A stretch of DNA of 64,000 nucleotides from an uncultured Candidatus Saccharibacteria bacterium (lineage in GTDB: Bacteria > Patescibacteriota > JABMPQ01 > JAQVVF01): NCBI GenBank assembly GCA_964574655.1, contig CAZNOH010000004.1, positions 66,046 through 130,045 of the forward strand, in the 5' to 3' direction. Under the pieces are notes generated by a model, which saw only the letters and a list, made by a program, of their open reading frames with translations, was not told the origin of the DNA and did not search any database. Shown in pieces: positions 2,419 to 60,242 of the stretch; position 1 is the first letter of the stretch, and the number at the start of each line of letters is the position of its first letter. Made by a program: the position numbers and the translations under genes.

Positions 2419-5304
2419 ATGGAAAACAAAAATAAAACTAATAATAATAAGAAAAAAAATATGAATAATGCAGAAACTAAAACAAAGGTTTCAAGCAGAT
2501 CCCGAGTTGTTGTCGGATTAGTCACTGCTCTAGTTGTTGCAACTGCAATAGGCTCAGCAATTTTCTTTGCCGGTGTTGTACCGCCTGCTGGATGCCAGAA
2601 ACAGGATGATGATACATACAAATGCGACTTTTCTGAAGCCTTTACTAATAATTCAAATATTGACAAAGACAAAACTGACGATTGGATGCAAATAGATGAG
2701 GGACATCTTGTTTTAAATCCCTCTGAACAAATTAAATTAAGAAAAGGACAGGAATTTTCAGATGACGATAAGCCAGCTCAGCAAATATGCGGAACTTTTT
2801 GCACTTTTGGAGAATGCACTGATCAAATTTCTATAGCGCAAATGAGCAGAATAGTATTAGGACCACTCAAAAAAAATAATCAAAATACACCTGATGCTTC
2901 CTTGAATTTTGTTGATGCGCGTTTAGGAAAAAATTCTAGCTTGCCTTATGAATTAAATACAGAGTTTTTTAGACCGAATGGAAATCCAAATGATATTGGC
3001 ATGGCAATATTTGATTCTTCTAATCCAGATTCAGCAATTGTTTATAACGACTTTTTTGGTTCAAGCAAACCTTCAATACTCCCAATTTCACCAGGTGGCA
3101 GAACTGAACTTCGAGCAAATACATGCGGTCAAACAAGAGAAACTTATTTTTTGCCTGTTGATTCAGAAGGTTTTTCTGATTTTAATCCAGTTAACCAAGC
3201 ATTTGATACTCGTTTTATACAAGGAGCTACTGTTTCAAAAGATGTTTCTACTAATTTAAACGATAAATATAATATTACATCTGCTGATTTTAATCCACAG
3301 ATTGCAAACTTAGATGGAGTCATTTTTGGCGCTCAAAAAATTAGAGGAATGGTTTTGATTCTTGCTTCAAACAATAACGGAAATACTTGGTATATACCTT
3401 CTGAATATTCAATTGACCAAGGCCAGACTTGGAAACAGGTTGGCAAAGAAGACTTTTTTATAGATAGGTTAGCTGATAAAAGATATAGATTTAATTTTAC
3501 AAACTCAGAAGGCCATAATTTAAAATGGGCTGCTGTTATACAATCTGATGATAATAATTTGCATGAACAAAGAGAAATAAACGCCGGAGATAGATTCGAA
3601 AATCTTGGTGGAATGCTTGAAGCTGGTGGAGGTGCAGATGATTTTGATATTGGAATGACAAACTCCGAAATATTTGACATAAACACAAATACGCATGTTA
3701 ATCCGATGACTGAAAAACAATTGATTGCTGGCGGTATTATGACTGCTGGACAAGCTGGAAACAAAACCTATTATTTTATGAATCGTGCTTATTGGCCAAA
3801 TTACAGCGATGCTGCGATTCAAGCGTCACAAAATTTTAATGAAAATAATGTAATAATTGAATCTTTGACTCCAGAAATAGTTCAGGTTTTTGATGCTTCA
3901 AAAGGGAATAAAACAATTGTTGGTGGTTCTGAAGATGGCGCGAACAATGATCAGTTTAATGTTGTAGATGTTGTCATTGGTGGAATTAAACCAGGTTATG
4001 GAAAATTAAAAGTAAGTTTTTTAGGGCCTGCTGGTGGTGATGCGCGAAGAATTATTTCAGAAAAGGAATTTGGATTTCTTGTCCTCCCTCAAGCTTATTT
4101 GAATCTTGATAAATTAGATATTTCTTATACAGCAGTGAAGACTGATGAAGTTCCTGACACTGGCGGAGATGTAAATGATCCAGGCGTACAAAATCAAGGA
4201 ATTGGCGCGTCAACTTATATTTACAGAGGTCATAATAGAGTAATTGTAAAATTAGCAGGAGCTAATGATGAAACAAAAAATCAATTAAAAAGCTCTTTTG
4301 ATGCCAAGACTTTGAAATTTAATTATGGAACTGACAAAAATAATTTAGATAAAACTGCTAAAGTATATTTTGATACTAAAGATTCAAAATATTATGCAGT
4401 ATTGAGAGATCTAAAAGGCGGAGAAAAAGATGGCTACAATAAAGACGGATTTAGTGACGGAAGAATGCAATATTATTATCAATTCAAGGCCGGAAATAGC
4501 GATATTTTTCTAGATGCAGAAAAACAGAATACTGTTGGCGATTTCAAAACATTAAATAGAAAAAGAACAGTCCTTTATTATTATAATTGGATCTTTGATC
4601 GGAAATATGATTTAAACAAAGATTATGCTTGGGCAGATGTCCAAGATGGCGGTGTAAATTTCTGGTATGACACAAATATCACTTTGCCTGGCATTAGATT
4701 CATGATGCTGAATGACAGAAGATACAAAGAATTTAATACTTATTTGAATAAGAAAAAAACAACAAAGAAATTAGTAGCCTGGCTATACAAAAAAGGCTTA
4801 GATAGAATCTATGATGACAATCTCTATAAATTTGCTGATGATAATGGCGTAAATTATTGGTATCGACAGATGACAAAGATTAGGAAAAAAGACAGAATTT
4901 CTAAAGAAGGCGCAAAGTTTGCAATTTCAGCAAGTACGGAAGCTCGAAATCAATTGCAAGAATTATTTAATTCTAAAAATGAAGCAAACGCAGAATTTTC
5001 TTATAATGTTGTTTTGAAACGTGGCGGTGATCAAGGCGGTGTTGATTATTTGATTGATACTTTCAAGGATTCTCAAAAAAGAATGCGTGAAGATTTGGCA
5101 AATAGTTTTGAATATAATAATAGATTAGAGACTATTGAAAAAGAAGGTGGCAGAAAATCAGCAATTGCCGAATTGTACGAAACATTATATGCAAGACCTG
5201 CTGATGTTTCTGGAGTTGATTATTGGGCAGAATCAAATCAAACAATTCCTCAAATCAAAGAAGATTTCTTGAAGAGCAATGAATTCATTAACGTCTTAAA
5301 ATAA
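2419..5304 (+). CDS. large membrane-anchored surface protein with C-terminal DUF4214-like repeats
   Basis: 961 aa; K/N-rich N-terminus then a TM helix; C-terminal repeats of the form LY..L.R.AD..G..YW...........F..S.EF; paralogue of the next gene. Confidence 0.6.
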   Translation: MENKNKTNNNKKKNMNNAETKTKVSSRSRVVVGLVTALVVATAIGSAIFFAGVVPPAGCQKQDDDTYKCDFSEAFTNNSNIDKDKTDDWMQIDEGHLVLNPSEQIKLRKGQEFSDDDKPAQQICGTFCTFGECTDQISIAQMSRIVLGPLKKNNQNTPDASLNFVDARLGKNSSLPYELNTEFFRPNGNPNDIGMAIFDSSNPDSAIVYNDFFGSSKPSILPISPGGRTELRANTCGQTRETYFLPVDSEGFSDFNPVNQAFDTRFIQGATVSKDVSTNLNDKYNITSADFNPQIANLDGVIFGAQKIRGMVLILASNNNGNTWYIPSEYSIDQGQTWKQVGKEDFFIDRLADKRYRFNFTNSEGHNLKWAAVIQSDDNNLHEQREINAGDRFENLGGMLEAGGGADDFDIGMTNSEIFDINTNTHVNPMTEKQLIAGGIMTAGQAGNKTYYFMNRAYWPNYSDAAIQASQNFNENNVIIESLTPEIVQVFDASKGNKTIVGGSEDGANNDQFNVVDVVIGGIKPGYGKLKVSFLGPAGGDARRIISEKEFGFLVLPQAYLNLDKLDISYTAVKTDEVPDTGGDVNDPGVQNQGIGASTYIYRGHNRVIVKLAGANDETKNQLKSSFDAKTLKFNYGTDKNNLDKTAKVYFDTKDSKYYAVLRDLKGGEKDGYNKDGFSDGRMQYYYQFKAGNSDIFLDAEKQNTVGDFKTLNRKRTVLYYYNWIFDRKYDLNKDYAWADVQDGGVNFWYDTNITLPGIRFMMLNDRRYKEFNTYLNKKKTTKKLVAWLYKKGLDRIYDDNLYKFADDNGVNYWYRQMTKIRKKDRISKEGAKFAISASTEARNQLQELFNSKNEANAEFSYNVVLKRGGDQGGVDYLIDTFKDSQKRMREDLANSFEYNNRLETIEKEGGRKSAIAELYETLYARPADVSGVDYWAESNQTIPQIKEDFLKSNEFINVLK

Positions 5305-5311
5305 AAACAAA

Positions 5312-8122
5312 ATGACCCTAAAAAAGATTTCTAAAAACGGTCAGAACAATAAAAAGAAAAATATGAATAATCAAGGAAAATTAGCTACGCAAACGAAAAC
5401 AAGAAGCAAGACAAAAATAATAACTGGAATCGTTATTGCTGTATTAGTGATAGTTGGATTGGGAACGGCAATCTTTTTTGCTGTAAATCCTGCTCAGACA
5501 AAAATCATAAATTTTTCAGACGAATTTCAGAATGCTGATAATCTTGTTTTAGAAGACGGAATAGCGATAAATGCGGATCAAGCAAATCTTTATACATCAG
5601 ATGCGAATTTTAGGAGACAACTTATCAGCGAAGACACAAATTTTATTTGTCCTGGCGATTTGAAGGACAAGATTGCAACAATCGAGGTAACTGGCAAACA
5701 CGCATATTCTTCTGAAGAATTAAAGCCAGATTTAGAAAATGATGTGTACCGTGAAAAACTTGGCGTGAAAATTAATGGTCAAGAGATTAATACTGATTCA
5801 AATACTGCCGAAGATATTCAATTAGTTAATTATTTTCATAATTTTCCAAATGTAAAATGGTCTCATCTTTTGCGATGGCAATCAACAAATCCCAGCACAA
5901 TGCTTGTTTTGAATAATGGCACAATAATTCCGGTATCTAAAGGAGAAACAAACATAAAAGTGGCAATCTGTGGTATTGTCAGCGAAGAAGATTTCAGCAT
6001 AAATTTAGGAGCTGATGAGGCTGAAATGCTGGTATTCAACAACATTACAGCTCTTAGTGGAATCGGAACAGCAATAAGTCTTTTTCAGGATAAATTTACT
6101 AATCATATTCTTGTTTCAAAAGAAATAACTAGTTTAGACGATAAATTCCTAGTAGCGGATAATATGGCGATAAATAAAATAGAAGGCAAGCTTTATACTA
6201 ATTTTGATAATGGAAAAAATATAAAACTTTTGTTCAGTTTTGACAATGGAGATACTTGGACATTAATTGATAATTTGATACTGCATCAAGAACAGAATTT
6301 GCTTGCTCCAGAAAAATACTTAAGTTTTTCTCAAGATATCTCTCAGGAAAATGCTCGCCATCTTCGCTGGATGGTTATTTATGAATTTAATGAAAACATG
6401 GGCGAACTTAATGATCAGCTGGATACTTCCCCATTATTGAGTGTTTTACAAGGTCTTGTAACTCCGATTTCTGGAATAGAAGTTGCAGGACAAAATAAAA
6501 AAGCAATTTTTGTCGGACCAAACAACAGCACGCAATTAAATATTGGATTACCAGCGAATGAAATTGGTAATCGCGTAGTTGCCTATTCACATCATTTAAT
6601 TAGAAATACTTCTGGAGATGGGACGCAATTTCCAACATTATTAGCAAATAATCCTGGCATCACCAATTTCCAGCAAGGATATCCTTTGGGTTTGATTAAT
6701 TCTTTTGAAGCGGCGACGATTGTTGCATTGCCAGGCAATTTAGAAATTTTAAAAATAGATTTATCAGCAACAGCTGAAGCAAAAGCAGGATGCTCTGAAG
6801 GGCAAGAATTAGTAGCTGGCAAATGCACAATTCCTTTGCCTCCGAATGGAGGAGACGCTGAACAATGCAATGATGATTTTAGATGTCCAGAAGGACAGCT
6901 CAGGCAAAGTTGCTTGAAAGAATGCTTGGGGCCGGAACCGTTGATTTGCAACAAAAGTGAAATTTTGATCAAAGATAATTGCCAGAGTGTCTTGCATAGT
7001 GAAACTGATTCTGCTCTAATGGTAAATCCAAGAATTATATACAGAGGAGACGACAGAGTTATCATATTTTGGAAAGTTGGCAAAGATGAATATAAAAACA
7101 AAGAATTACAGTTTAAATATGGAACATTTGATCCAAATAATTTGCAAAAAGATGCGGATAACAAAGTTATTTTGGAAGATTTCAATAATGCAACAGTTCA
7201 TTATAATGAAGAAGAAGACTACTATTATGCAGTCTTAAAAAATCTGAAAGGCGGAGAATTAGTTGATAAAAATGATGCTGGCTTTATAGATGGCCGAAAA
7301 CCTTATGCATTTCAAATCAGCTTAGGAGAAAATTATGCCCGACCAACAGCATTTAAAACTTTAAACAGATTTCAGACAATTCTTTACTATTATAATCTGG
7401 TATTGAGCGAGAATTTTAATTTAGAAAATTATGAACAGGTTGATGATTCGTTAAGAGGAGGCGGTTCTGCATTCTATTATAAGCCTGAAGGGCAAGAGCC
7501 TCTGAGCTTGAGAGGCGTGCATTTTACATTGCTAAATGACAGACAATACGAGGAGTTTAATAACCGAATCAGTGCAACAGCAAAGAAATACGGCAATAAA
7601 AAAACAGTGGAAGAATTATACAAACGTGTTCATGACAGAATTTATGATGATAATTTGGGCATGACTTTTGATAAAGCAGGCGTTGATTATTGGACTAAAC
7701 AAGTTGAAAGAAAAGATGATAACAGAATTGATATTTTGGGCGCGAAATTTGCAATTTCGGTCAGTCCTGAGGCAACTGGTGATATTTCAAAAATGGCGTT
7801 GAATGAACAAAAAGTAGCAAAAGCTGACTTATCCTATGAAGTTGTGCTAAGACGCGGTGGTGATCAAAAAGGCATTGAAAATCTAATGACGCTAGCAAAT
7901 ACAAAAGAAATGAGACAAAAGCTGGCGATGAGCAGAGAATACGATGATCGATTAAATTCTATCAGTGACAGAAGAGCGCAAATTGAAGAATTATACGAAA
8001 CTTTATATGCCAGAGCTGCTGATGTCGCTGGAGTGGATTATTGGGATAATACTGGAGAGTCAATACAAGAGATAAAGCGAGAATTCTTAAACAGCGCAGA
8101 CTTTTCTAGGATAACACAATAA
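5312..8122 (+). CDS. large membrane-anchored surface protein with DUF4214-like repeats and a Cys-rich module (paralogue of 2419..5304)
   Basis: 936 aa; shares N-terminal KKKNMNN...TM and C-terminal ELYETLYAR.ADV.GVDYW motifs with the upstream gene; Cys-rich stretch near aa 490-560. Confidence 0.6.
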   Translation: MTLKKISKNGQNNKKKNMNNQGKLATQTKTRSKTKIITGIVIAVLVIVGLGTAIFFAVNPAQTKIINFSDEFQNADNLVLEDGIAINADQANLYTSDANFRRQLISEDTNFICPGDLKDKIATIEVTGKHAYSSEELKPDLENDVYREKLGVKINGQEINTDSNTAEDIQLVNYFHNFPNVKWSHLLRWQSTNPSTMLVLNNGTIIPVSKGETNIKVAICGIVSEEDFSINLGADEAEMLVFNNITALSGIGTAISLFQDKFTNHILVSKEITSLDDKFLVADNMAINKIEGKLYTNFDNGKNIKLLFSFDNGDTWTLIDNLILHQEQNLLAPEKYLSFSQDISQENARHLRWMVIYEFNENMGELNDQLDTSPLLSVLQGLVTPISGIEVAGQNKKAIFVGPNNSTQLNIGLPANEIGNRVVAYSHHLIRNTSGDGTQFPTLLANNPGITNFQQGYPLGLINSFEAATIVALPGNLEILKIDLSATAEAKAGCSEGQELVAGKCTIPLPPNGGDAEQCNDDFRCPEGQLRQSCLKECLGPEPLICNKSEILIKDNCQSVLHSETDSALMVNPRIIYRGDDRVIIFWKVGKDEYKNKELQFKYGTFDPNNLQKDADNKVILEDFNNATVHYNEEEDYYYAVLKNLKGGELVDKNDAGFIDGRKPYAFQISLGENYARPTAFKTLNRFQTILYYYNLVLSENFNLENYEQVDDSLRGGGSAFYYKPEGQEPLSLRGVHFTLLNDRQYEEFNNRISATAKKYGNKKTVEELYKRVHDRIYDDNLGMTFDKAGVDYWTKQVERKDDNRIDILGAKFAISVSPEATGDISKMALNEQKVAKADLSYEVVLRRGGDQKGIENLMTLANTKEMRQKLAMSREYDDRLNSISDRRAQIEELYETLYARAADVAGVDYWDNTGESIQEIKREFLNSADFSRITQ

Positions 8123-8127
8123 GATTT

Positions 8128-8163
8128 TAAAAAAGCGGATCTTCATGATCCGCTTTTTTTTTG
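8128..8163 (+). terminator. rho-independent terminator
   Basis: Perfect 8-bp stem agcggatc/gatccgct with a 5-nt loop followed by a run of about 10 T. Confidence 0.8.
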
Positions 8164-8209
8164 TTTGAATTTGGCTTTGTTTTATTATATAATGATTTGA
8201 AGGATATTA

Positions 8210-8833
8210 TTGTATTTAAAGCTAAAAATGGCAGAAAAAAATAAAGAATTATCATGGGAAAGAGTGGAAAAATATCTGGCTGAAAAAACTGATACTGGAA
8301 ATATGATGGCACTGATTGAAACAGAAAAGCTTTTTAAAGATGCAGTAGCTGATTTTGATTTACCAGGCGATGACTTAGAAAGGCAGATAACTGCTCTAAG
8401 CTTTGTTTTTACAGATATAAGCGATTTGCATAAAACAAGATCTTTATGCAAAAAAATAACTGAAAAAACAAATTTTTCGCTGACAAAGATTGAAACAATT
8501 CGTAATCTAGAAATTTATTATCAAGCAATATCGGATCTAAAAGATTTTAGAAAGAAAAAAATATCTTCGTTCAAAAAAATAAAGATGTACTTACAAACTT
8601 TCTTGCCACAGCCAAAGATTTTTATTAGAAAATTCGTTTTAATTTTTTTGATCTTTTTTCTAGCCATTTTTTTATTAGATGCAACAAGCTTCGGAAGAAT
8701 GGTTGTTGATCTTTTTGTCTCGTTATCTCATTTAATTTTCAGCTGGGTATTATTTATTATTCTATTAATTGCTGGCATTGCAATATTAGTTGTTGGAACT
8801 ATATATTATTTTCAAGGCAGGAGAAATCACTAA
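8210..8833 (+). CDS. hypothetical protein with C-terminal TM helices
   Basis: ORF of 207 aa; a likely alternative start is the ATG at 8228 (MAEKNK...); two or three C-terminal hydrophobic helices. Confidence 0.4.
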   Translation: MYLKLKMAEKNKELSWERVEKYLAEKTDTGNMMALIETEKLFKDAVADFDLPGDDLERQITALSFVFTDISDLHKTRSLCKKITEKTNFSLTKIETIRNLEIYYQAISDLKDFRKKKISSFKKIKMYLQTFLPQPKIFIRKFVLIFLIFFLAIFLLDATSFGRMVVDLFVSLSHLIFSWVLFIILLIAGIAILVVGTIYYFQGRRNH

Positions 8834-9280: not shown

Positions 9281-12200
9281 ATGAGCTTTGTTCATCTCCA
9301 TACTCACAGCCACTATTCTCTGCTTGATGGCTTGCCAAAAATTGACGAGCTGGTTTTGCATGCAAAAGAATTAGGAATGGAAGCACTGGCGCTGACTGAT
9401 CATGGCGTGATGTATGGAATTGTTGAATTTTACCAAGCTTGTAAAAAAGCTGGCATTAAACCAATACTTGGCGTGGAAACATATGTTGCGCCGAATAGAA
9501 TGAGCGATAAAAGAGCACATATTGATATACGGCCATATCACTTAATTTTATTGGCGAAAAATCATGAGGGCTATCAGAATTTGTTAAAACTGATCTCAAA
9601 AGCACATGTTGAGGGCTTTTACTATAAACCAAGAATTGACTTTGAATTATTAAAAAATAACTGCAAAGGATTAATTTGTTTGTCTGCTTGCATTGAAGGA
9701 CAAATAGCTAGAGAAACTTTGACCAATATTGATAAAGCAAGAGAAACAGTTTTAAAATACCAAGAAATTTTTGGAAAAGAAAATTATTATTTAGAACTTC
9801 AACATCATCCAACCATAAAAAGACAAGGCAAAGCAAATGAAAAATTAATCTTGCTTGCAAAAGAAACCGGCGCTCCTCTGGTTGCAACCAATGATATTCA
9901 TTATTTGAAAAAAGAAGATGACAGGATTCAAGATATTTTGCTGTGCATACAATTGCAAAAGAAAGTTGATGATAAAAAAAGAATGTCAATGATGGGTGAA
10001 GATTTTTCCATGAAGCCGACAGAAGAGATGGAAAGATCTTTTATCAATACTCCAGACGCAATTTCAAATACTTTAAAAATTGCCGAACAATGCAATGTCG
10101 AAATTGAGCTAGGCAAAACTAAGCTCCCCATTTTTATCGTGCCTAAGGAATTGACTCCAATAGATTATTTAAAAAAGTTGTGCGAAGAAGGTTTGCAAAA
10201 TAGATTTGAAAAAAGCAGAGAGAGCTTAGATAAAATTATTATAGAAAGATTAGATTATGAATTATCAGTAATTGAAAAAACCGGTTTTGCCTCATATCTC
10301 TTGATTGTTTCTGATTTTGTTAATTGGGCAAAAGAAAGCGGAATAATTGTCGGCCCAGGCCGTGGCTCTGCTGCTGGCTCGCTAATCGCCTATTTATTGA
10401 AAATAACTGATATTGATCCGATTAAATATGATTTATTGTTTGAAAGATTCTTGAATCCAGAAAGAATAAGCATGCCTGATATTGATATGGATTTTGCAGA
10501 TACAAGGCGCGATGAAGTTTTGCAATACGTTAAAGGTAAATATGGCGCTGATCATGTTGCCCAAATCATAACTTTTGGAAAAATGGCGGCAAGAGCAGCT
10601 GTGCGCGATTGCGGACGCGTTTTAAGCTATCCTTATGAATATTGCGACAAATCAGCAAAAATGATTCCAATGGGGTCCACTATTTCTGAGGCTTTAAAAA
10701 TAAATCCCGAACTAACCTCTTTTTACAATAGCGATCCTCAAGCAAAGGTATTGTTCGATTCTGCCAAAAAATTGGAAGGCGTTGCTAGACATTCATCAAC
10801 GCATGCTTGCGGTGTTGTGATCACAAAAGATCCGCTTGATACTTATACTCCTTATCAATTTTCAACTCGCGGTGACGAAGAAATTACTACTCAATACGAA
10901 ATGCACGCCATTGAAGACCTAGGTCTTTTAAAAATGGACTTTTTAGGTCTGGCTAACCTTACAACTATTGAAAAAGCTTTAGAAATTATTGAAGCAGTCC
11001 ACAAAATAAAGGTTGACATTGGCAAGGTTGAAATGGACGATAAAATAACTTTTGATCTTTTGCAAAAAGCGCAAACTGTTGGAGTATTTCAGCTTGAATC
11101 TGCTGGCATGCGCAGATATTTAAAATTATTAAAACCAACAAATTTTGAAGACTTAATTGCGATGGTTGCATTGTATCGTCCAGGACCAATGGAATGGATT
11201 CCTTCCTATATTGATGGCAAACATGGGCGGAAGAAAGTCAAATATGTTCATCCGAAGTTAGAGCCAATATTGAAAAAAACTTTTGGTATTGCTGTTTATC
11301 AAGAACAAGTTTTGCAAATTGCGAGAGACTTGGCGGGCTTTACTTTAGGCGAGGCTGATGTTTTAAGAAAGGCTGTTGGCAAGAAGATCAAGGAATTGCT
11401 GGAAGAACAAAAAGATAAATTTATTAAAGGATGCGTAGCAAATGGTATAGCAGAAGAAGTTGCAAGAAAAGTTTTTGCTTTTATTGAACCTTTTGCTGGC
11501 TATGGATTTAACAGATCGCATGCTGCATGCTATGCGTTGATTGGCTACAGAACTGCTTATCTAAAATCTCATTATCCAGTGGAATTTATGGCTTCTTTAC
11601 TTACTTCTGATCAGGAAAATATGGATAGAATTGCGATAGAAATAACAGAATGCGAAGAAATGGGTATTGAAGTTTTGCAACCAGATATTAATGAAAGCTT
11701 TCCAAATTTTGGCGTGGTCAAAGAGCGTGGAAAATGCATTAGATTTGCTTTTAATGCTATAAAAAATGTCGGCTCAACAATCGCTGATGCAATTTACAAA
11801 GAAAGAAAAAAATCTGGCAAGTTTAAAGATTTTTTTGATTTTGTTAGACGTGTTAGACATAAGGATTTGAATAAAAAATCAATTGAAAGCTTGGCAAAAT
11901 CTGGAGCTCTGGATTCTCTGATTGAAAGAAATCAAGTGTTGAATAGTATTGATAAGATTCTAAATTTTTCTAAATCCATACAAAAAGAATTAGACTCTGG
12001 TCAGACTGATTTGTTTGGCAATAAAAAAGATAACGTTTCAACAATAAATTTTAAACTTGATCAAGCAGAGCCTGCCACTAAAAGAGAGCGCTTAGCTTGG
12101 GAAAAAGAATTATTGGGCCTCTATGTTTCCGAACATCCTGTTGATGAGTACAAGGATTATTTAAGTGCTGTTGCAATCCCAATTAGCCAACTAAATATAA

Positions 12201-13205: not shown

Positions 13206-14343
13206 ACACATGAATTTAGGCAAAGTTGGACCATCCCGTTCGCCATATAAAATAATTTTTGTTTTTGGGATTATCAGTTTTCTAGTGCTTGTTTTTGTTT
13301 TTTATACTTCTTTTTCTAAAGCGAAAATAACTTTGAATTTGCGAAAAGAAAAAATTGATACTACTTTTGAGATTGCTGTTGGCAAAGATAAAATTAACGC
13401 TACATCTGTTAGCGGTAGGTTTGTTGAAAAAGAAGTTGCAGGTTCTGATGAAATAACTGATATTAAAGAAAAAAAAGTAGATGATTTTGCTTCTGGCAAA
13501 GTTACAGTTTTTAACAAACAAAATAAAGCATTAACATTAGTTGCGTCTTCACAATTAAAACCTGAGAATTCGGAAATAATCTTTAAAACAACTGGGCCTT
13601 TAATTTTAAAACCAAAAGGCAAAGTTGAAATGAAAATTGTCGCCGGACAAAAAGGCGTTGCTGGTAATTTAACGCCTACAAAATTTACTTTTGTAAAACT
13701 TTGGCCAGGATGGAAAGATTTAGTCTATGCTGAAAATAAGGAGGAATTTACTGGAGGCGAAAAAACTGGCAGAATTGTTTCTGAAGAAGATATAAATAAT
13801 TTAAGAACAAAAATAGTTGATGATTTGTTTGCTAAATTTTTTGTTGATATAAAAAATGAGGAAAAAGACAATGAAGAACTCTGGGATCAATTATTCAAGA
13901 AAGAAATTTCTGGCTTTAAGACGTCAGCTGATGCAAGTGAAGAAGCAGATAAATTAAAGGCTGATTTAAAATTAAAGATTACAGGAGTTTTGTTAAATAG
14001 AGAGATGCTAGAAAATCTAGCAATCGCAAAGTTAAAAGGACAAATTATTGGCGAAAAAGAATTTGCAAAGCTTGATGATGATAATTTTAAAGCTGAAATA
14101 ATTGAAATGAATCCGCAAAAGAACCAAGCAATTTTCAAAATATCTTGCTCGGCTTTTTTAAAACCAATATTAGCTAAAGAAGCATTGGATAAAGAAAAAA
14201 TTACAGGATTAAATTATGATGAAATAAAAACTTATTATAAAAAATATCAAGAAGATATAGAGAGTGTTGATGTTTTTTTCTCGCCTTTCTGGCAGAAAAC
14301 AGTGCCAGGTGGAAATGGAAATGTGGAAATAGTTGAGGAATAA
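13195..14343 (+). CDS. hypothetical membrane-anchored protein
   Basis: 382 aa; N-terminal TM helix; no family recognised. Confidence 0.45.
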   Translation: MIFKHMNLGKVGPSRSPYKIIFVFGIISFLVLVFVFYTSFSKAKITLNLRKEKIDTTFEIAVGKDKINATSVSGRFVEKEVAGSDEITDIKEKKVDDFASGKVTVFNKQNKALTLVASSQLKPENSEIIFKTTGPLILKPKGKVEMKIVAGQKGVAGNLTPTKFTFVKLWPGWKDLVYAENKEEFTGGEKTGRIVSEEDINNLRTKIVDDLFAKFFVDIKNEEKDNEELWDQLFKKEISGFKTSADASEEADKLKADLKLKITGVLLNREMLENLAIAKLKGQIIGEKEFAKLDDDNFKAEIIEMNPQKNQAIFKISCSAFLKPILAKEALDKEKITGLNYDEIKTYYKKYQEDIESVDVFFSPFWQKTVPGGNGNVEIVEE

Positions 14344-27181: not shown

Positions 27182-27187
27182 TTTAGA

Positions 27188-27280
27188 TTCTACATGGCTT
27201 TAGCCAAGGGGTATTAGAGCTTTAGCTCCAGCAATAAAATGGCTAAAGCCATTCTACCCCTCAGCTAAAGCTGGATAGAA
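27188..27280. repeat. family-C palindromic element (about 92 bp) with TTCTAC/GTAGAA termini
   Basis: ttctacatggctttagccaagggg...cccctcagctaaagctggatagaa; lies between convergent genes. Confidence 0.65.
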
Positions 27281-29201: not shown

Positions 29202-29239
29202 ATCCTCCTTCGTCCTACGGGACTCCGGAGGACAAAAAG
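29202..29239 (-). repeat. family-A element (copy b), supplying the SD for the gene starting at 29192
   Basis: Minus strand reads ttgtcctccggagtcccgtaggacgaaggaggat followed by taaaatagtATG. Confidence 0.65.
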
Positions 29240-31098: not shown

Positions 31099-32445
31099 AT
31101 GAAAAATAAATTTTTTATTAAAACATTCGGCTGTCAGATGAATATTTCTGATTCTGAAAGAATTGAGGCTGTTTTGTTGAATGCTAAATTTAAGAAAGTA
31201 GATTCTGAAAATTTGGCTGATTTTGTAATTGTAAATTCTTGTTCTGTAAGGCAAGCTGCTGAAAATAGAGCGATTTCGACATTAAAAAATGCAAGAAAAA
31301 ATAAGCAAATTGCAATTGTCACTGGATGTTCTGCAGTAAAAGAAAAAAATAGATTCAAAAAATTTGCTGATTTTGTTTTGGATATTAAAGATTTGAAAAA
31401 ATGGCCAAGCATTCTACCTTGCCCCCACCTTCGTAAAAACTTCGGTGGGCAGGCATGGCAGGAGTCGCGACAAAAACGAACCTTTGCCATGGGCAAAGTA
31501 GAAACTAACTATTTCAAAATTCATCCAAATTATTCAAGTAAATTCCATGCTTATGTGCCGGTAATGACTGGTTGTAATAATTTTTGTTCTTATTGTGTAG
31601 TGCCTTATGCTCGCGGACGTGAAGTTAGCAGATCTGTAAATGAAATTATTAAAGAAGTAAAATCTCTTGTTAAACAAGGTTATAAAGGCGTAACTCTGCT
31701 TGGTCAGAATGTAAACAGTTACTGCGGTAAGGTAAAAGTCAAAAGTAAAAAGGAAAAAGCTGCAAGTAAAAAATCAAAAAACGATGTCGACTTTCCTACT
31801 CTTCTTAAAATGATTAATGACATTCCTGGCGATTTTTGGATTTGGTTTTTGACTAGCCATCCAAAAGACATGAGCTTGAAACTGATTAAAACGATAACAA
31901 AATGCAAGAAAGTCTGCCGTTATATTCATTTGCCTGCTCAAGCTGGAAATGATGAAATTTTGAAAAAAATGAATCGCAAATATACTCATGCAAAATATTT
32001 AAAGCTTGTTCAATCAATCAAAAAATATTTGCCTGATACTTGCCTTTCAACGGATATTATTGTTGGTTTTCCTTCTGAAACTAAAAAACAATTTCTTGAT
32101 ACCTGCAAACTTTTTAAAGAAGTGAAATATGATATGGCTTTTTTAGCTAAATACTCGCCTAGACCTGGAACAGTATCATTTAAAATGAAAGATGATGTTT
32201 TGCAAGACGAAAAGAAAAGACGTGAAAATTTCTTGAATAATATTTTGAGAAAAACAGCCTTAAAAAATAATAATAAATATTTAGGAAAAAATGTTGAAAT
32301 ATTAGTTGAGAAAAAAAATATTGGCAGAACTAGAACTTTTAAATTAGTTAAATTTAATTTTGATAAAGATTTGATTGGACAGATTGTTAAAGTGAAAATT
32401 ACGAAAGCTTTAGCTTGGATTTTGGAAGGAGAAATAAAAAACTAG
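31099..32445 (+). CDS. miaB: radical-SAM methylthiotransferase, MiaB-like, with an in-frame repeat-element insertion
   Basis: MTTase N-terminal domain (FIKTFGCQMN), CxxxCxxC (GCNNFCSYC) and a C-terminal TRAM domain; adjacent to miaA. Confidence 0.8.
   Translation: MKNKFFIKTFGCQMNISDSERIEAVLLNAKFKKVDSENLADFVIVNSCSVRQAAENRAISTLKNARKNKQIAIVTGCSAVKEKNRFKKFADFVLDIKDLKKWPSILPCPHLRKNFGGQAWQESRQKRTFAMGKVETNYFKIHPNYSSKFHAYVPVMTGCNNFCSYCVVPYARGREVSRSVNEIIKEVKSLVKQGYKGVTLLGQNVNSYCGKVKVKSKKEKAASKKSKNDVDFPTLLKMINDIPGDFWIWFLTSHPKDMSLKLIKTITKCKKVCRYIHLPAQAGNDEILKKMNRKYTHAKYLKLVQSIKKYLPDTCLSTDIIVGFPSETKKQFLDTCKLFKEVKYDMAFLAKYSPRPGTVSFKMKDDVLQDEKKRRENFLNNILRKTALKNNNKYLGKNVEILVEKKNIGRTRTFKLVKFNFDKDLIGQIVKVKITKALAWILEGEIKN
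31414..31508 (+). repeat. family-B two-hairpin element, in-frame inside miaB
   Basis: ctaccttgccc...cccacc/ggtggg hairpin...ctttgccatgggcaaagtagaaactaa; encodes LPCPHLRKNFGGQAWQESRQKRTFAMGKVETN. Confidence 0.7.
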
Positions 32446-32474
32446 GTCAAAAACCTAGTCAAGGAGCAAAATTA

Positions 32475-32726
32475 TTATTTCTCATATTCCATCAGCGTTC
32501 CGCATTTTGGACAAATATAGAGCTCAGCTATCTTTTTGGGCAAGAATCTAGCTTTACATTGTGGGCAATCGATTGCAGCAAGATTGAGATCAATTCTTAA
32601 TTTTTCAAAAATAGAAGGATCAGATTGTTCCCGTAGACTTGCAATGATTGCATCTATCTCAGCTTGATCTAATTCTACCCTATTTCGTTGCTTCTCTAAA
32701 ATTCTGTCCCTTGTTGCTTCGTCCAT
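32475..32726 (-). CDS. small zinc-ribbon protein (CxxC...CxxC), paralogue A
   Basis: C-terminal CPQCKARF...CPKCG. Confidence 0.5.
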   Translation of the reverse strand: MDEATRDRILEKQRNRVELDQAEIDAIIASLREQSDPSIFEKLRIDLNLAAIDCPQCKARFLPKKIAELYICPKCGTLMEYEK

Positions 32727-32767
32727 TTCTCCCCTCCTCTCTTTAGAGAACCTTCAAGAATATCATT

Positions 32768-33013
32768 TTAAACGATTTTGATTTCTGCACCACACTTTGG
32801 ACAATGATAGAGTTGCCATATTTCATAGGGCAAAAAAGTGGCATTGCACTGATTACACGCTGTCTTAAGCATCTTATCAATTCCTAATTTCATGAACATA
32901 TTATGATCTGAAGATCCTGCAGGAGTGCCAAGAACAGCCTCTTTCTCAGTCCGATCTAGCTTTTCGCCTTTTTGACGCTTCGTCAAAATTCTGTCTAATA
33001 CTTCTTGTTCCAC
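32768..33013 (-). CDS. small zinc-ribbon protein, paralogue B
   Basis: C-terminal CNQCNATF...CPKCG; the N-terminus resembles 32475..32726. Confidence 0.5.
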   Translation of the reverse strand: MEQEVLDRILTKRQKGEKLDRTEKEAVLGTPAGSSDHNMFMKLGIDKMLKTACNQCNATFLPYEIWQLYHCPKCGAEIKIV

Positions 33014-33062
33014 TCTTCCCTCCTTGCCTGAGAATATTTAAGAATATAATTTTTAATATACT

Positions 33063-33968
33063 ATGTCAAATAATTTACCTAAAGTTATAGTCATTCTTGG
33101 TCCGACTGCCTCTGGCAAGTCTGGTTTTAGTATTAAATTGGCTAAAAAATATAATGGTGAAATTATATCTTGTGATTCAAGACAGTTTTATAAAGAAATG
33201 AATGTTGGCACTGCCAAAGTGACCAAAAAGGAAATGCAAGGTGTGAAGCATTACATGATTGATATAATTAAGCCTAATCAAAATTTTTCAGTTGCTAAAT
33301 TTAAAAAACAGGCTGAAAAAATAATTAATGATATTTTAAAGCGAAAAAAAATTCCGATTTTGGTTGGCGGAACAGGATTATATATTCAATCTTTAGTTGA
33401 TAATTTAACTATTCCTCAAGTTCCTCCAGATTTTGAATTAAGGAAAAAACTTGAGAAACAAGATATTGAAAAGTTATGGGCAAGATTAATTAAATTTGAT
33501 CCTAAATCCGCTAATTTTGTGCAAAGACAGAATAAAAGAAGAATCATTAGGGCTTTAGAGGTTTGCCAGAAAACAGATAAAACTTTTTCAGGATTTCAAC
33601 AAAAAGGCAAACCGAAATATACTTTTTTGCAGATTGGTATTAAAGTAGATCGCGAAAAACTTTATGCAAGAATTGATAAAAGAGTTGATCAAATGATTGA
33701 TGATGGATTGATTCCAGAAATTAGAAAATTAAATAAAAAGTATTCATGGAAATTACCAGCAATGTCCGGAATTGGCTATGGTGAATTTAAGGGAAAACTA
33801 AATAAAATCAAAGATAAAAAAATTCTGGCAGAAATTGTCCAGAATATTAAATTTCATACTCATCAATACGCCAGACGGCAGGAAAGTTGGTTTAAAAGAG
33901 ATGAAAAAATAAAGTGGATTAAAAAATATAGCCAGGCAGACGAATTGGCGAGAAAATTTGTAAAGTAG
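33063..33968 (+). CDS. miaA: tRNA dimethylallyltransferase
   Basis: P-loop GPTASGKS, SCDSRQFYKEMNVGTAK. Confidence 0.9.
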   Translation: MSNNLPKVIVILGPTASGKSGFSIKLAKKYNGEIISCDSRQFYKEMNVGTAKVTKKEMQGVKHYMIDIIKPNQNFSVAKFKKQAEKIINDILKRKKIPILVGGTGLYIQSLVDNLTIPQVPPDFELRKKLEKQDIEKLWARLIKFDPKSANFVQRQNKRRIIRALEVCQKTDKTFSGFQQKGKPKYTFLQIGIKVDREKLYARIDKRVDQMIDDGLIPEIRKLNKKYSWKLPAMSGIGYGEFKGKLNKIKDKKILAEIVQNIKFHTHQYARRQESWFKRDEKIKWIKKYSQADELARKFVK

Positions 33969-33970
33969 TT

Positions 33971-34054
33971 CTACCTTGCCCACCTGCCTACCAGCAGGTA
34001 GGTGGCAAAGGTCAGCAAATTAGTAACCTCTGCCATGGGCAGAGTAGAAGCTAA
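33971..34054 (+). repeat. family-B element, intergenic, 3 nt after the miaA stop
   Basis: ctaccttgcccacctgcctaccagcaggtaggtggc...ctctgccatgggcagagtagaagctaa; the second hairpin carries compensatory changes relative to the copy in miaB. Confidence 0.7.
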
Positions 34055-34101
34055 TTAAGAAAAAAACCGACGAAAGTCGGTTTTGTGTTAAAAATAAAAG
34101 A

Positions 34102-35115
34102 TCAGCGAGGTTGAATTTTGGGAAGAAGCTGTTCGAAATGTGCGCTCGTTTCAGGAAAAACTGAGGCAAGAATTACACGGAAATATTGAGAGAAAACATT
34201 GGGATTCCAACGACTCCAATCTTCCCTGCTAAAATCCATACCAATCAAACGCATATCATCAAGGGTTTCCATTGCATAACGTTTTGTGCGATGAACAGAA
34301 TCTCCAATGTCGCCAACGAAACAAAGACCTGTATCTTGATAACGTCTCCGCAAGGCAGTACAGAACTCACGGGTAACAATTGTCAGCGGCCGTAAACCTA
34401 AATCAGTATATGGCAATTTCAAACCTTGTGGCGCGACATCAACTAGGGCAGAATTAAAAACTGGAATAAGTTCGACATCATTTTCTCGGCAGGCTCTGAA
34501 AGTTTCCTGAAGCCCATAAAAACTGCCACAGACTGGAAAGATGAACATTTTTTTTGGTTTATGGTGCGGAAATCCTTCACCGACAAAATGCGCAATTGTA
34601 CTACCAGAAGCTACACATTCTTCCAAGCACAACCAAACATTGTCTTCCCACCATTTACCGGCAAAAGCAAGCCTTTCAATGCGAAAACCATTCGGCTGTG
34701 TTTTGTCTTCCTTGCGTTCATATTTGATGTAAGTAGAATCAATCATAATACCGCTAACCAAAGGTGGCTGACAGAAATGCATGTTGTAAGCCTCGCCACC
34801 ATAAAGAATAATGAATTGAGCCAGCTTTTCACCATCAAACATACCCATTTTTTTGCAGATCTGGGCAAGAGCATGACCAATCTGTTGAAGCATAAAGAAC
34901 TTGTCTGGACCACAGAGCTCCCGACTAAGCAAGAATCTCTGACCTACTCCAAGTGCTGGAAAATCAACAACGAAGATTTTCCGTGGCAAATCAAATTCCC
35001 TAAAATCTGAATAATGACCAAGATTATCAATTCTCCAAACATTTTTTCCATCATGAGAATGAACCAATCGACCGATGTCTTCCAAAAACATCTGAGGCAT
35101 GTTGTCCGTTGTCAT
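34102..35115 (-). CDS. hypothetical protein (G+C-rich)
   Basis: Start MTTDN preceded by ggagga; no family recognised. Confidence 0.4.
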   Translation of the reverse strand: MTTDNMPQMFLEDIGRLVHSHDGKNVWRIDNLGHYSDFREFDLPRKIFVVDFPALGVGQRFLLSRELCGPDKFFMLQQIGHALAQICKKMGMFDGEKLAQFIILYGGEAYNMHFCQPPLVSGIMIDSTYIKYERKEDKTQPNGFRIERLAFAGKWWEDNVWLCLEECVASGSTIAHFVGEGFPHHKPKKMFIFPVCGSFYGLQETFRACRENDVELIPVFNSALVDVAPQGLKLPYTDLGLRPLTIVTREFCTALRRRYQDTGLCFVGDIGDSVHRTKRYAMETLDDMRLIGMDFSREDWSRWNPNVFSQYFRVILASVFPETSAHFEQLLPKIQPR

Positions 35116-35131
35116 CCTCTTTTCCTCCATT

Positions 35132-35162
35132 GATCGCCGAAGCTCTTTGAGCGAAGGCGATC
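35132..35162 (-). repeat. family-A-like divergent element (copy h) in the 5' leader of 34102..35115
   Basis: gatcgccgaagctctttgagcgaaggcgatc is a perfect hairpin; resembles copy f (ccgccgaagctttgagc). Confidence 0.45.
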
Positions 35163-35344
35163 TTGTTGCAAGGTGCAAGTATCAAAAAATCCGCTAGATA
35201 GCGGATTTAAAAGGGATTAAAATAATCCTCCGAAATAGAAATAGTTGAAGCGAATTTTTCTGTTCATTGTTTGCATACACATTATTCAAAGCATAACAGG
35301 TTTTTATTATCAAGTCAACCTTCATCAAAATTTCGGCTGATAAA

Positions 35345-41893: not shown

Positions 41894-41934
41894 AATGATA
41901 TTTAATACTTAGTTAATAATTGACGTGAGTATAA

Positions 41935-42030
41935 TACGAATGACCATACGAATAATGCGAATGATACAAATTGCGAATACGTCGATTCGTAATTCGCAAC
42001 ATTCGCATTATTCGCATACGCATTCGTATC
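41935..42030. repeat. inverted array of ATTCGCA/TGCGAAT heptamers in the rplK leader
   Basis: Four or five [TA][AG]CGAAT copies, then five ATTCG[CT]A copies, forming an imperfect palindrome of about 95 bp. Confidence 0.7.
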
Positions 42031-42037
42031 ATCATAT

Positions 42038-43450: not shown

Positions 43451-43596
43451 AAAAAACAGCGGCTGGAACCACTATTTATTAGTTCCATTATAATTTATTA
43501 AAAATGTATTGTCAAGAGCTTTTGTTTTGTATATACTTGAGTATGCTCTTTCAAGGTCAGAAAAAATAGCTAACCCCTAACCGAGGAGGAAGGAAA

Positions 43597-43950
43597 ATGA
43601 GAAAGACAGGTTTGTTGTTGGTTGTTATGCTCATTATTTTGGCAATTTGTTCTTTTTCAAAAAACATTTTTGCGATGGCTTGCGAAGGTGAAGCAGAAAA
43701 AGCTTGTGATTATAACTATCATGAATGGTTTTATCCGGCTGAAGATTTCGATTTGATGAAATGCGTTGCAGGTTGCTACAGCTTGGAAACAAATGCCAGA
43801 ACTGATGCGAAGAGGATTTGCTGTTGGGATGATGATGACGGAAATCTCGAAGAACAGTGTTACTTTTTCTTGGATGATTATTTTGCTTTTTATGATGAAT
43901 TGTACGAAATTTCTGATGTGGGAAATTTCGCTGTTTTCATGATTCAGTAG
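43597..43950 (+). CDS. secreted cysteine-rich small protein P1
   Basis: MRK...signal peptide; 8 Cys; motif ICCWDDDDG; SD aggagga. Confidence 0.55.
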   Translation: MRKTGLLLVVMLIILAICSFSKNIFAMACEGEAEKACDYNYHEWFYPAEDFDLMKCVAGCYSLETNARTDAKRICCWDDDDGNLEEQCYFFLDDYFAFYDELYEISDVGNFAVFMIQ

Positions 43951-43974
43951 CTCCCCAACCAAGGAGGAAAGACG

Positions 43975-44265
43975 ATGAGAAAAGCAAGTTTGTTGTTGGC
44001 AATTTTCATTCTGATGCTGTGTTCATGTATCATGGAAAAGAAAGCAAACGCACTGTTTTTAGTTGGAGAGGGAGTACCCATTTTCGCATTTAATGACATA
44101 TCTTACTGTATGTCGCAAGAAGGCTTTACTGGCAAAGAAAAAAGCTGGAAGGATTCTAAGAGTTTGATCAGGGAATGCATCTCTTGGCTAGAAGTTTGTC
44201 AGCCAGAATATCTTGATGGCACATTATCAGATTGGATCGATTATGCAAATTCTTGCCATCCCTAG
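43975..44265 (+). CDS. secreted cysteine-rich small protein P2
   Basis: MRKASLLLAIF signal peptide; SD aaggagga. Confidence 0.5.
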   Translation: MRKASLLLAIFILMLCSCIMEKKANALFLVGEGVPIFAFNDISYCMSQEGFTGKEKSWKDSKSLIRECISWLEVCQPEYLDGTLSDWIDYANSCHP

Positions 44266-44284
44266 AAAAGAAGGAGGAAGGAAG

Positions 44285-44557
44285 ATGAGAAAAGCTGGAC
44301 TAGCTGTGATTCTCTTTGTTTGTCTGTTGTGTTTGGCAACTGACAAGGCCGAAGCTTATCTGAGCCATTTTGGCGGACACATTGAGATAGTGGTGGCTTC
44401 ACCAACCAAAGAAGATTGTTTGGAAGATGAATCTTTTCCTTGGAAGGATTGCTGTTGGAAAGACGAGGACAGTCTCTATGAAGCCTGTGATGCATGGTTT
44501 CGTGGCTGGCCTTGGTCGCCAGAAGAATTTGAAAAGGAAAATTCTTGTCGCCACTAG
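44285..44557 (+). CDS. secreted cysteine-rich small protein P3
   Basis: MRKAGLAVIL signal peptide; motif DCCWKDEDS; SD gaaggaggaagg. Confidence 0.55.
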   Translation: MRKAGLAVILFVCLLCLATDKAEAYLSHFGGHIEIVVASPTKEDCLEDESFPWKDCCWKDEDSLYEACDAWFRGWPWSPEEFEKENSCRH

Positions 44558-44571
44558 AAGGAGGAAGGAAG

Positions 44572-44862
44572 ATGAGAAAAGCCAAGTGGTTGTTGATGTT
44601 GATGTTTTTGTGTGTATGTGGAATTTGTCTGACTGAAACGAAAAGTGAAGCATTGACTTGCTGGGATGGTTATTGCTGTTGTGATAATGGCGATATGGTC
44701 TGCAATGCAATTTGTAGTTCTACAAGGGAATTAGCATGCTATTTGGAAAATAATAATAAAGATCGAGCTTGCTGTTGGCTAAAAGATGGCGGATCAAGAG
44801 AAAGTGATTGCAAGGCAGAACTGGCAAAAAGCAAATCAGGACATGTGTTCATTTTGTACTAA
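44572..44862 (+). CDS. secreted cysteine-rich small protein P4
   Basis: MRKAKWLLML signal peptide; CWDGYCCCDNGD and ACCWLKDGG; SD identical to that of P3. Confidence 0.55.
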   Translation: MRKAKWLLMLMFLCVCGICLTETKSEALTCWDGYCCCDNGDMVCNAICSSTRELACYLENNNKDRACCWLKDGGSRESDCKAELAKSKSGHVFILY

Positions 44863-58271: not shown

Positions 58272-58287
58272 AATTTTTAATTTATTT

Positions 58288-58379
58288 TCTACCTGGCTTT
58301 AGCCAAGGGGTCGGTGAACTTTAGTTCACAAACGACGGGAGCTAAAGCTCTACAACCCCTCAGCTAAAGCTGGGTAGAA
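58288..58379. repeat. family-C element, second copy
   Basis: ttctacctggctttagccaagggg...gggagctaaagctc...cccctcagctaaagctgggtagaa. Confidence 0.65.
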
Positions 58380-60145: not shown

Positions 60146-60242
60146 CCCCGAACCAAGTTTCTGCATTTTATATTTCTAGCTTTGATTAGTGATTATTTAA
60201 AATCAATGTTAATGGTTTGATCACCAGAAACTTGGTTCGGGG
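60146..60242. repeat. 97-bp element bounded by a perfect 18-bp inverted repeat, abutting the tRNA
   Basis: ccccgaaccaagtttctg ... cagaaacttggttcgggg; the right arm overlaps the first 2 nt of the next tRNA. Confidence 0.7.

Follow-up and report, generated by a model that had tools for sequence, protein, structure and literature searches.

Two short GC-rich elements in a 64-kb stretch of DNA (referred to as a whole as the window) are head-to-head dimers of repetitive extragenic palindromic (REP) units, one inside the tRNA-modification gene miaB and the other directly behind miaA. Our analysis makes it very probable that both are dimers of the type known as REPINs (REP doublets forming hairpins) or BIMEs (bacterial interspersed mosaic elements), that they belong to a system of REPs and a REP-associated tyrosine transposase (RAYT) that is widespread in Patescibacteria, and that the copy in miaB is carried as a translated linker of the protein. 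The window comes from a genome of the Patescibacteria (Candidate Phyla Radiation, CPR), as judged from its best MiaB homologues, all of which are proteins of Patescibacteria/Parcubacteria metagenome-assembled genomes (MAGs). It should be noted that REP dimers within genes and REP/RAYT systems are already known; the present case stands out by its host, a member of the CPR, by a RAYT clade that is divergent, and by the tag adjoining each hairpin, which has a mirrored polarity.

Both copies present the architecture 5'-TTCTAC-hairpin-spacer-hairpin-GTAGAA-3', with a GC content of 52% in an AT-rich window of about 33% GC. Dimer A (31412..31503, + strand) measures 92 nt from tag to tag, with the tags facing outward, and lies in frame in miaB. 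It consists of a left REP unit (31412..31464, - strand; AC-TCCTGCC-ATG-[30-nt loop expansion CCACC..GGTGG]-GGCAAGG-TAGAA), a 16-nt spacer (31465..31480, + strand; TCGCGACAAAAACGAA) and a right REP unit (31481..31503, + strand; C-CTTTGCC-ATG-GGCAAAG-TAGAA). Dimer B (33969..34049, + strand) measures 81 nt from tag to tag and comprises a left REP unit with an expanded loop (33969-34011), a spacer (34012-34026) and a right REP unit (34027-34049; C-CTCTGCC-ATG-GGCAGAG-TAGAA). An earlier note on this DNA had recognized both elements as two-hairpin structures, and they are indeed present, although with the boundaries given here rather than those first proposed. The note had also set the second copy three nucleotides after the miaA stop codon; the element is found behind miaA, but its first base is the base directly 3' of the TAG. 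The termini, previously described as near-complementary, are mutually complementary over 13 nt (TTCTACCTTGCCC / GGGCAAAGTAGAA), one base further at each end than noted, and the tag-to-tag termini read TTCTACCTTGCCC and GGGCARAGTAGAA. Of the two hairpins in the earlier description, the first exists in both copies, yet it is not a separate module, being the expanded, self-complementary loop (CCACC...GGTGG) of the left REP unit. The second is likewise present in both, and the copy sequences bear out the compensatory pair by which its stems covary, CTTTGCC/GGCAAAG in miaB versus CTCTGCC/GGCAGAG behind miaA.

The repetition within the window exceeds what is expected by chance. Allowing at most one mismatch, the terminus CTACCTTGCCC has 4 matches versus 0.19 expected, a count reached in 0/100 shuffles, although one of the four, at 60240, sits within a tRNA gene and is a chance match; TGCCATGGGCARAGTAG occurs exactly twice versus 0.11 expected, a count that no shuffle reached. 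Folding z-scores against shuffles range from -3.7 to -5.5 for both copies on either strand. The window holds no third copy of this repeat family (family B of the earlier note), and an Rfam gathering scan of the window, together with an E-value scan of 31300-34200, returned only tRNAs and noise, leaving the element unmatched.

Beyond the window, a scan of GTDB genomes showed that the core unit, AC-CCCTGCC-ATG-GGCAGGG-TAGAA, recurs with covarying stems in other Patescibacteria MAGs. A metagenome scan with a degenerate unit pattern yielded 50 matches in 40 contigs, 46 of these matches lying in low-GC contigs. All four free stem pairs were complementary in 37 of the 46, compared with 1/16 expected by chance, and the 37 contained 7 stem variants. 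In the low-GC loci that were fetched we catalogued 76 units, with more than 10 stem variants, a near-constant ATG loop, an invariant TAGAA tail and usually an AC before the stem. The repeat is thus a 23-nt imperfect palindrome found at many, mostly intergenic loci, with 4 units in the window. Most catalogued units are arranged in head-to-head dimers, often heterodimers with a partner such as TTCTACGCCGCCCATGGCGGCGG, and the inverted arrangement TTCTAC-hairpin-(10-30 nt)-hairpin-GTAGAA was seen in the window and in the related loci L001, L025, L029, L037, L049 and others. Units also occur singly, while tail-to-tail junctions (GTAGAA-N-TTCTAC) adjoin RAYT genes. A GCTAA extension past the GTAGAA was present in only a subset of units and is not family-wide. 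The earlier view of a dispersed repeat family stands, and both sites are free of the element in two close orthologous loci.

In L013 and L016 the units bracket a gene of about 200 amino acids (aa), and units flank RAYT genes at L016, L013, L022, L023/L024 and L065; pairs of units about 640 nt apart in L042, L046, L050 and L055 were counted to the same arrangement. Among protein families, the bracketed gene best matches NF047646 of NCBIfam (REP-associated tyrosine transposase, E = 1.9e-10), and it matches Pfam Y1_Tnp weakly. All 26 aligned homologues match NF047646 (best E = 1.7e-12), and 6 of the 26 also match IS200. Most of the 124 homologues that we collected are unnamed; the named ones are all from MAGs of the Patescibacteria group, except one labelled 'bacterium', and two carry the JGI annotation 'REP element-mobilizing transposase RayT'. 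The alignment of the 26 members shows an invariant N-H-x-H (the HUH motif, as N-H-F/Y-H), W-Q and G-Y-x2-G-N-L-L-K-H. In Escherichia coli TnpAREP, the catalytic Tyr and metal ligands are Y115/N119/H123 (PMC3479197), and the Y-x3-N-x3-H spacing in the Patescibacteria RAYTs is the same. An AlphaFold2 (AF2) model of the RAYT (predicted local distance difference test, pLDDT, 88) has as its top fold match 4ER8, TnpAREP with a REP hairpin (E = 7.6e-9, TM 0.72), ahead of the TnpA proteins of IS608 and ISDra2. Taken together, the motifs, the NF047646 matches and the predicted fold identify the enzyme as a RAYT-clade Y1 HUH nuclease.

One RAYT gene, P0147, shares a 645,164-bp contig with L001 and is flanked by family-B units, TTCTACCCTCCCCATGGGAGGGG on one side and CCCTTGGCATGGCCAAGGTAGAA followed by TTCTACCCTGCCCACGGCAGGGG on the other; its TAG stop codon falls within the GTAG tag. 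A second gene, P0151 (runs SRR13723393 and SRR13723394), is syntenic with P0147, having the same neighbour genes, 74-86% identical, and is flanked likewise. The window is matched at 100% identity by contigs from SRR13723393 (for 3.1 kb) and SRR13723397 (for 2.3 kb). A different RAYT from the same runs, P0228 (L065:1849-2448), is flanked by GCTTTAGC/GCTAAAGC units with the tags TTCTAC/GTAGAA. This unit type is that of the window's repeats at 27186-27280 and 58287-58379, so that there are two RAYTs, each with its own REP type, a pattern described in Pseudomonas (PMC3116915). The repeats at these two positions form a second family of about 95 nt, starting with TTCTAC, ending with (G/A)TAGAA and containing several GCTTTAGC/GCTAAAGC hairpins; they are probably family A of the earlier note and the cognate REP of P0228. 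As a separate observation, called RAYT open reading frames (ORFs; L023:2948-2990 and 3596-3607, L022:10606-10617) have as their first codon the ATG in a REP loop (CCC-ATG-GCAGGGG...) and as their stop codon the TAG in a REP tag (CCAAGG-TAG-AA). The start and stop of the RAYT gene may therefore be embedded in its own putative substrate, and the real start codon may be further downstream. Our literature search for RAYT or REP in Patescibacteria/CPR found nothing relevant.

The identity of the flanked gene also bears on whether the elements are conventional miniature inverted-repeat transposable elements (MITEs), that is, deletion derivatives of an insertion sequence (IS) with a DDE transposase, moved by cut-and-paste via terminal inverted repeats. 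Although complementary 13-nt termini, the small size of 81-92 nt and an empty-site polymorphism after miaA are what a MITE would present, we give this origin scarcely any probability. The only consistently unit-flanked gene encodes a Y1 HUH RAYT homologue and not a DDE transposase, the termini are the tags and stems of hairpin units that also occur singly and tail-to-tail, no target-site duplication was found at either window copy or at copies elsewhere in related loci, and no parent IS with the same terminal inverted repeats was found in the window or related loci.

Comparison of orthologous loci shows how the REP dimers are distributed among close relatives. Both elements are present at the same two sites in L001, whose MiaB is about 81% identical to that of the window (orthologous copy of dimer A at 10332-10393, counterpart of dimer B at 13263-13324). 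Neither is present in L004 and L007, whose MiaB is about 80% identical to that of the window, and in which the gene order is the same and miaB and miaA are intact. The miaB copy of L001 has the plain form, [TTCTAC-CCTGCC-CGTG-GCAGGG-G], a 16-nt spacer and [C-CTTTGCC-ATG-GGCAAAG-TAGAA]; it lacks the 30-nt loop expansion, such that the window and L001 differ by 30 nt, in frame. As the spacers are conserved (TCGCGACAAAAACGAA in the window versus TCGCGTAAGAAACGAA in L001), the two miaB copies are considered orthologous. Behind miaA, L004 and L007 present a clean empty site, namely the stop codon, 8 nt and then the same terminator hairpin as in the window (AAAAACCGACGARAGTCGGTTTT). In the window, this intrinsic-terminator-like hairpin (AAAACCGACGAAAGTCGGTTTT, 34063..34084, with no strand assigned) is common to the convergent miaA and a 358-aa ORF; it is kept in 4/4 genomes and forms the right-hand boundary of the insertion site, so that dimer B stands between the miaA stop codon and a bidirectional terminator. 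Pairwise distances approximate a trichotomy of the window, L001 and the pair L004 and L007. Judging from these sequences, a single gain or a single loss suffices for the distribution of the elements, the two being indistinguishable. We also considered a recombination patch or horizontal gene transfer as the source of the shared elements, as sliding-window identity peaks at the element, but the tree is near a trichotomy and one gain or loss is enough.

The same comparison speaks to another explanation, by which the elements would be an exapted cis-element of the miaB-miaA pair, an RNA structure or protein site that coordinates the two ms2i6A37 genes and is kept by selection rather than by transposition. 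It is true that the only two family-B copies in 64 kb are found at the genes of two successive enzymes in a single pathway, that both are kept at the same sites in a lineage at a synonymous divergence (dS) of about 1, and that within the element identity between the window and L001 peaks and dS dips. Nonetheless, both copies are missing from two relatives that are equally close, share the gene order and have intact miaB and miaA, units occur at many unrelated loci, the two genes are adjacent, so that local duplication or a hop explains the pairing, the dS sample is small (23 codons), and REPINs typically persist at fixed sites for long. We therefore regard a dedicated cis-element as very unlikely.

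Dimer A lies in miaB (31099..32445, + strand; 448 aa), the product of which matches MiaB in PDB 7MJV with E = 2e-78 and contains the Pfam domains UPF0004 (aa 4-90), Radical_SAM (aa 154-338) and TRAM (aa 393-446). The element corresponds to about aa 105-136, i.e., between UPF0004 and Radical_SAM, in agreement with its earlier placement between the methylthiotransferase (MTTase) and radical-SAM domains. The insert keeps the miaB frame, as had been stated: among the three sense frames of dimer A, one is open, and this is the frame that miaB uses. The encoded peptide is (I)LPCPHLRKNFGGQAWQESRQKRTFAMGKVE, of about 31 residues, where about 32 had been counted, and the loop ATG of the right REP unit is read in frame as the Met of ...FAMGKVE.... 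Compared with the closest orthologues that lack the element, MiaB is only about 18 residues longer at this point, as the native 13-residue linker is missing. The site is a region where MiaB orthologues vary in length; the linkers of other MiaB orthologues, including other CPR proteins, are short, variable in length and unrelated to the insert, so that the homologous linker without repeat character that would have spoken against the earlier proposal was not encountered. The interdomain segment of the Bacteroides uniformis MiaB (7MJV) aligns with the insert site and is about as long as the window linker including the insert. In an AF2 model of the window MiaB (pLDDT 82), which rests on a shallow alignment and is weak evidence, residues 110-135 score below 50 and have no secondary structure, and the domains on either side are confidently modelled.

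By the selection analysis, an otherwise functional MiaB most likely includes the translated dimer A, in the form of a disordered linker some 31 residues long. For the pair of window and L001, at a dS of about 1, omega is 0.08 upstream of the insert (N-terminal domain) and 0.15 over the 310 codons that follow it. As downstream omega is low in lineages that bear the insert, the radical-SAM and TRAM domains have remained under purifying selection ever since the arrival of the element. Inside the element, dS is 0.31 versus 0.64-1.07 in the flanks (23 codons only), and nucleotide identity peaks at 0.89-0.93 versus 0.58-0.85 elsewhere; on the basis of these 23 codons, both values are consistent with constraint on DNA or RNA structure. 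A second in-frame case is found in a relative, in which a single REP unit TTCTACCCTCCCCATGGGAGGGG (L022:7695-7717) lies inside a PMT_2 glycosyltransferase gene (6720-8594) and encodes STLPMGGVG where the L023 orthologue has NDL---NNK. Intragenic REP dimers encoding 20-30 aa have been catalogued before, including in tRNA-modification genes (PMC3733652).

One could instead suppose that the miaB copy is not translated within a functional MiaB, the gene being split or pseudogenised at the element, or the element being bypassed or removed. The strong hairpins within the ORF (about -35 to -43 kcal/mol), the in-frame ATG in the right REP loop and a minus-strand terminator-like match inside the element are in keeping with this, and still we consider it very unlikely. 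The frame is uninterrupted in two lineages, with an indel between them that is a multiple of three, the domains on either side are under strong purifying selection at a dS of about 1, and the element resembles neither an intron nor an intein in its features and is without a match in Rfam. Moreover, no function is known for the N-terminal domain of MiaB/RimO alone, lacking the radical-SAM domain, which, together with the 7MJV alignment, also counts against an untranslated copy. Translation as a linker is thus the reading that we retain. Independently of the dimer, MiaB of the window carries a second lineage-specific insertion, the Lys-rich KVKVKSKKEKAASKKSKND (about 31753-31812, aa 219-238), in the radical-SAM region. 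The closest orthologues lack this insertion or differ from it; it has a pLDDT below 50 at aa 219-226, and overlaps an A-rich low-complexity repeat at 31734-31769.

The assignment to a REP/RAYT system has some weak points that need to be considered. Copy density is low, with 2 family-B dimers per 64 kb, where classical REPs number in the hundreds per genome. No RAYT gene was found in the 64-kb window by tblastn, and the first loci that were searched were also negative; P0151 and P0228 are tied to the window by shared samples and synteny and not by one contig. The RAYT scores lie under the curated cut-offs (40-45 bits versus 80 for NF047646, 20 versus 23 for Pfam Y1_Tnp), which sets this Patescibacteria clade apart as divergent from known RAYTs. 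The hidden Markov model (HMM) profile of the family gave no match at E <= 1 against PDB sequences and, as this search was empty, the relationship to known RAYTs was recovered only via NCBIfam and the fold search. The miaB site has no clean empty counterpart, as the counterpart of the 31 codons of the window is a run of 13 unrelated AT-rich codons in the orthologues without the element, and the event was therefore not a simple insertion. Mobility and translation are suggested by sequence and not by direct observation. Canonical REPs have GT[AG]G 5' of the hairpin (PMC3479197, PMC6006769), 0-2 nt from its foot on the enzyme-bound strand. In the present units GTAG is invariant but at the 3' foot (stem-ATG-stem'-GTAGAA), the 5' foot being TTCTAC, and the Tyr signature is Y-x3-N-L, unlike the Y-x3-N-P of class-2 RAYTs (PMC6006769). 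We thus file these repeats and their enzyme as a REP/RAYT system in the broad sense, a new divergent family outside the canonical 5'-GTAG class, though one that most likely works alike.

In other respects, the resemblance to the REP/BIME/REPIN and RAYT systems of E. coli, Pseudomonas and Stenotrophomonas (Nunvar 2010; PMC3116915; PMC3479197; PMC3733652) is close. Shared features are GC-rich imperfect palindromes with a GTAG-containing tag, stems that covary between subfamilies, a predominance of head-to-head dimers with spacers of about 15 nt, heterodimers with differing loop lengths, sites just 3' of stop codons, TAG stops supplied by the tag, a single-copy RAYT flanked by cognate units, two RAYT/REP pairs in one genome, the lack of target-site duplication, and occasional in-frame intragenic dimers encoding 20-30 aa. 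Indeed, published REP dimers are predominantly head-to-head and include heterodimers with unequal loops, long self-complementary loops and TAG stops derived from tags, with REPs found within 20 bp of upstream stops (PMC3733652). The host differs, as it has a Patescibacteria genome of about 0.65 Mb with a low copy number, whereas genomes with a RAYT exceed those without one in average size (PMC6006769). The elements of the IS200/IS605 family (IS608, ISDra2) share the Y1 HUH fold, as the second-best fold matches, as well as subterminal hairpins on single-stranded DNA and the lack of target-site duplication. Unlike them, the CPR elements carry no transposase between the hairpins, and the enzyme gene is single-copy and best matches RAYT rather than IS200 TnpA.

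Rickettsia palindromic elements (RPEs) offer a functional parallel. Ogata and colleagues reportedly described them in 2000 as in-frame palindromic repeats in essential genes of a reduced genome. Like dimer A in our reading, RPEs are translated as extra surface segments without loss of function. The resemblance is functional only; RPE-1, at about 100-150 bp, exceeds the present dimers in length and is not known to be associated with a RAYT. RPEs have been discussed alongside REPs, RPE-4 and RPE-6 being CGTC-type and not GTAG-type REPs (PMC3733652). Two further candidates were rejected. A solitary CRISPR repeat or mini-array, considered because the 28-nt core resembles a type I-F-like stem and handle, does not agree with two half-sites per locus, spacers of 15-16 nt, the lack of an array and the lack of cas domains in neighbouring ORFs. 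A Xer/dif-like 11-6-11 site or an integron attC was set aside on account of the many copies, the covarying stems, the RAYT association and the lack of a recombinase nearby.

The mechanism that we propose starts from a unit with a 7-bp GC-rich stem, an ATG loop that hardly varies and a constant tag (5'-AC-stem-ATG-stem'-TAGAA-3', reading 5'-TTCTAC-stem... on the other strand). A single-copy RAYT gene, itself flanked by units, would encode an HUH/Y1 single-stranded DNA nuclease-ligase related to the TnpA of IS200/IS605. By analogy with E. coli TnpAREP and IS200/IS605 (PMC3479197), this enzyme would bind the folded hairpin and tag on single-stranded DNA, cut and rejoin it, and the dimers would on the same grounds spread in trans without target-site duplications. 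One dimer would have landed in, or replaced, the variable-length MTTase/radical-SAM linker of miaB, in the only stop-free sense frame, and would since have been translated as a neutral disordered stretch of about 31 residues. A second would have settled in the 3' untranslated region of miaA, between stop codon and terminator, the usual place for a REP, where it is probably neutral, a stabiliser of the mRNA 3' end or a modulator of translation termination. According to Liang, Rudd and Deutscher (2015), ribosomes can reportedly be stalled by REPs that lie no further than about 15 nt from a stop codon.

A wider reading, to which we hold only tentatively and which is more doubtful than not, joins these observations. 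The Patescibacteria RAYT/REP systems could make up a subclass of their own, as yet undescribed, whose enzyme recognizes its substrate in mirrored form (5'-TTCTAC guide, 3'-GTAGAA, Y-x3-N-L). Within dimers, one unit's 5' CTAC could then base-pair with its partner's 3' GTAG, the two serving as guide and cleavage site. The elements would persist at fixed sites for a dS of about 1 in streamlined genomes of about 0.65 Mb, tolerated or exapted as translated linkers in essential genes, with the miaB and miaA copies possibly acting jointly on expression of the ms2i6A37 pathway.

The neighbourhood of the elements and other parts of the window contain further features. The gene for the isopentenyl pyrophosphate (IPP) transferase miaA (33063..33968, + strand; 301 aa; Pfam IPPT, E = 4.5e-81) has its TAG stop at 33966-33968, abutting dimer B. 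Between miaB and miaA, the window holds two tandem paralogous ORFs of about 82 aa (32475-32726 and 32768-33013, - strand) with C-terminal CxxC...CxxC zinc-ribbon motifs, L001 has two unrelated small membrane-like ORFs of 137 and 113 aa, and in L004 and L007 miaB and miaA overlap with nothing between them. As the contents of the gap differ among these genomes, the junction is a variable islet. The 358-aa ORF convergent with miaA (34102-35178, - strand) has no Pfam match and keeps its position in 4/4 genomes, but is extremely divergent, with a nucleotide identity of about 45% between window and L001 versus 73% between window and L004 and a slightly raised local GC. A third GC-rich hairpin repeat occurs at 2232-2261 (TCTACC-TAC-GTCCC-TC-GGGAC-TCC-GGTAGA) and 29203-29232 (TCCTCC-TTC-GTCC-TAC-GGGAC-TCC-GGAGGA), its outer stems differing by compensatory changes. 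AT-rich inverted repeats unrelated to the REP families lie at 41931-42032 (48-nt arms, 6 nt apart, with ATTCGCA-like motifs) and 1422-1883 (55-nt arms, 352 nt apart). Lastly, four copies of a block comprising a ribosome-binding site and a start, GGAGGAAGGAAnATGAGAAAAGC, spaced 290-380 nt apart at 43575-44596, suggest a tandem array of small paralogous genes.

By these results, an orphan two-hairpin element is assigned to a defined mechanism, that of REP/RAYT. For the Patescibacteria, this means that REP/RAYT systems, here as two cognate pairs, are maintained in ultra-small CPR genomes, counter to the reported trend towards larger genomes. In miaB, a REP dimer is carried in frame between two domains of a conserved enzyme of tRNA modification, a clean natural example for which orthologues free of the element are at hand for comparison. 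For the annotation of CPR genomes, the family accounts for GC-rich islands in AT-rich genes and for ORF starts and stops inside palindromes, while the mirrored tag offers a test case for how Y1 HUH enzymes read a hairpin and its guide.

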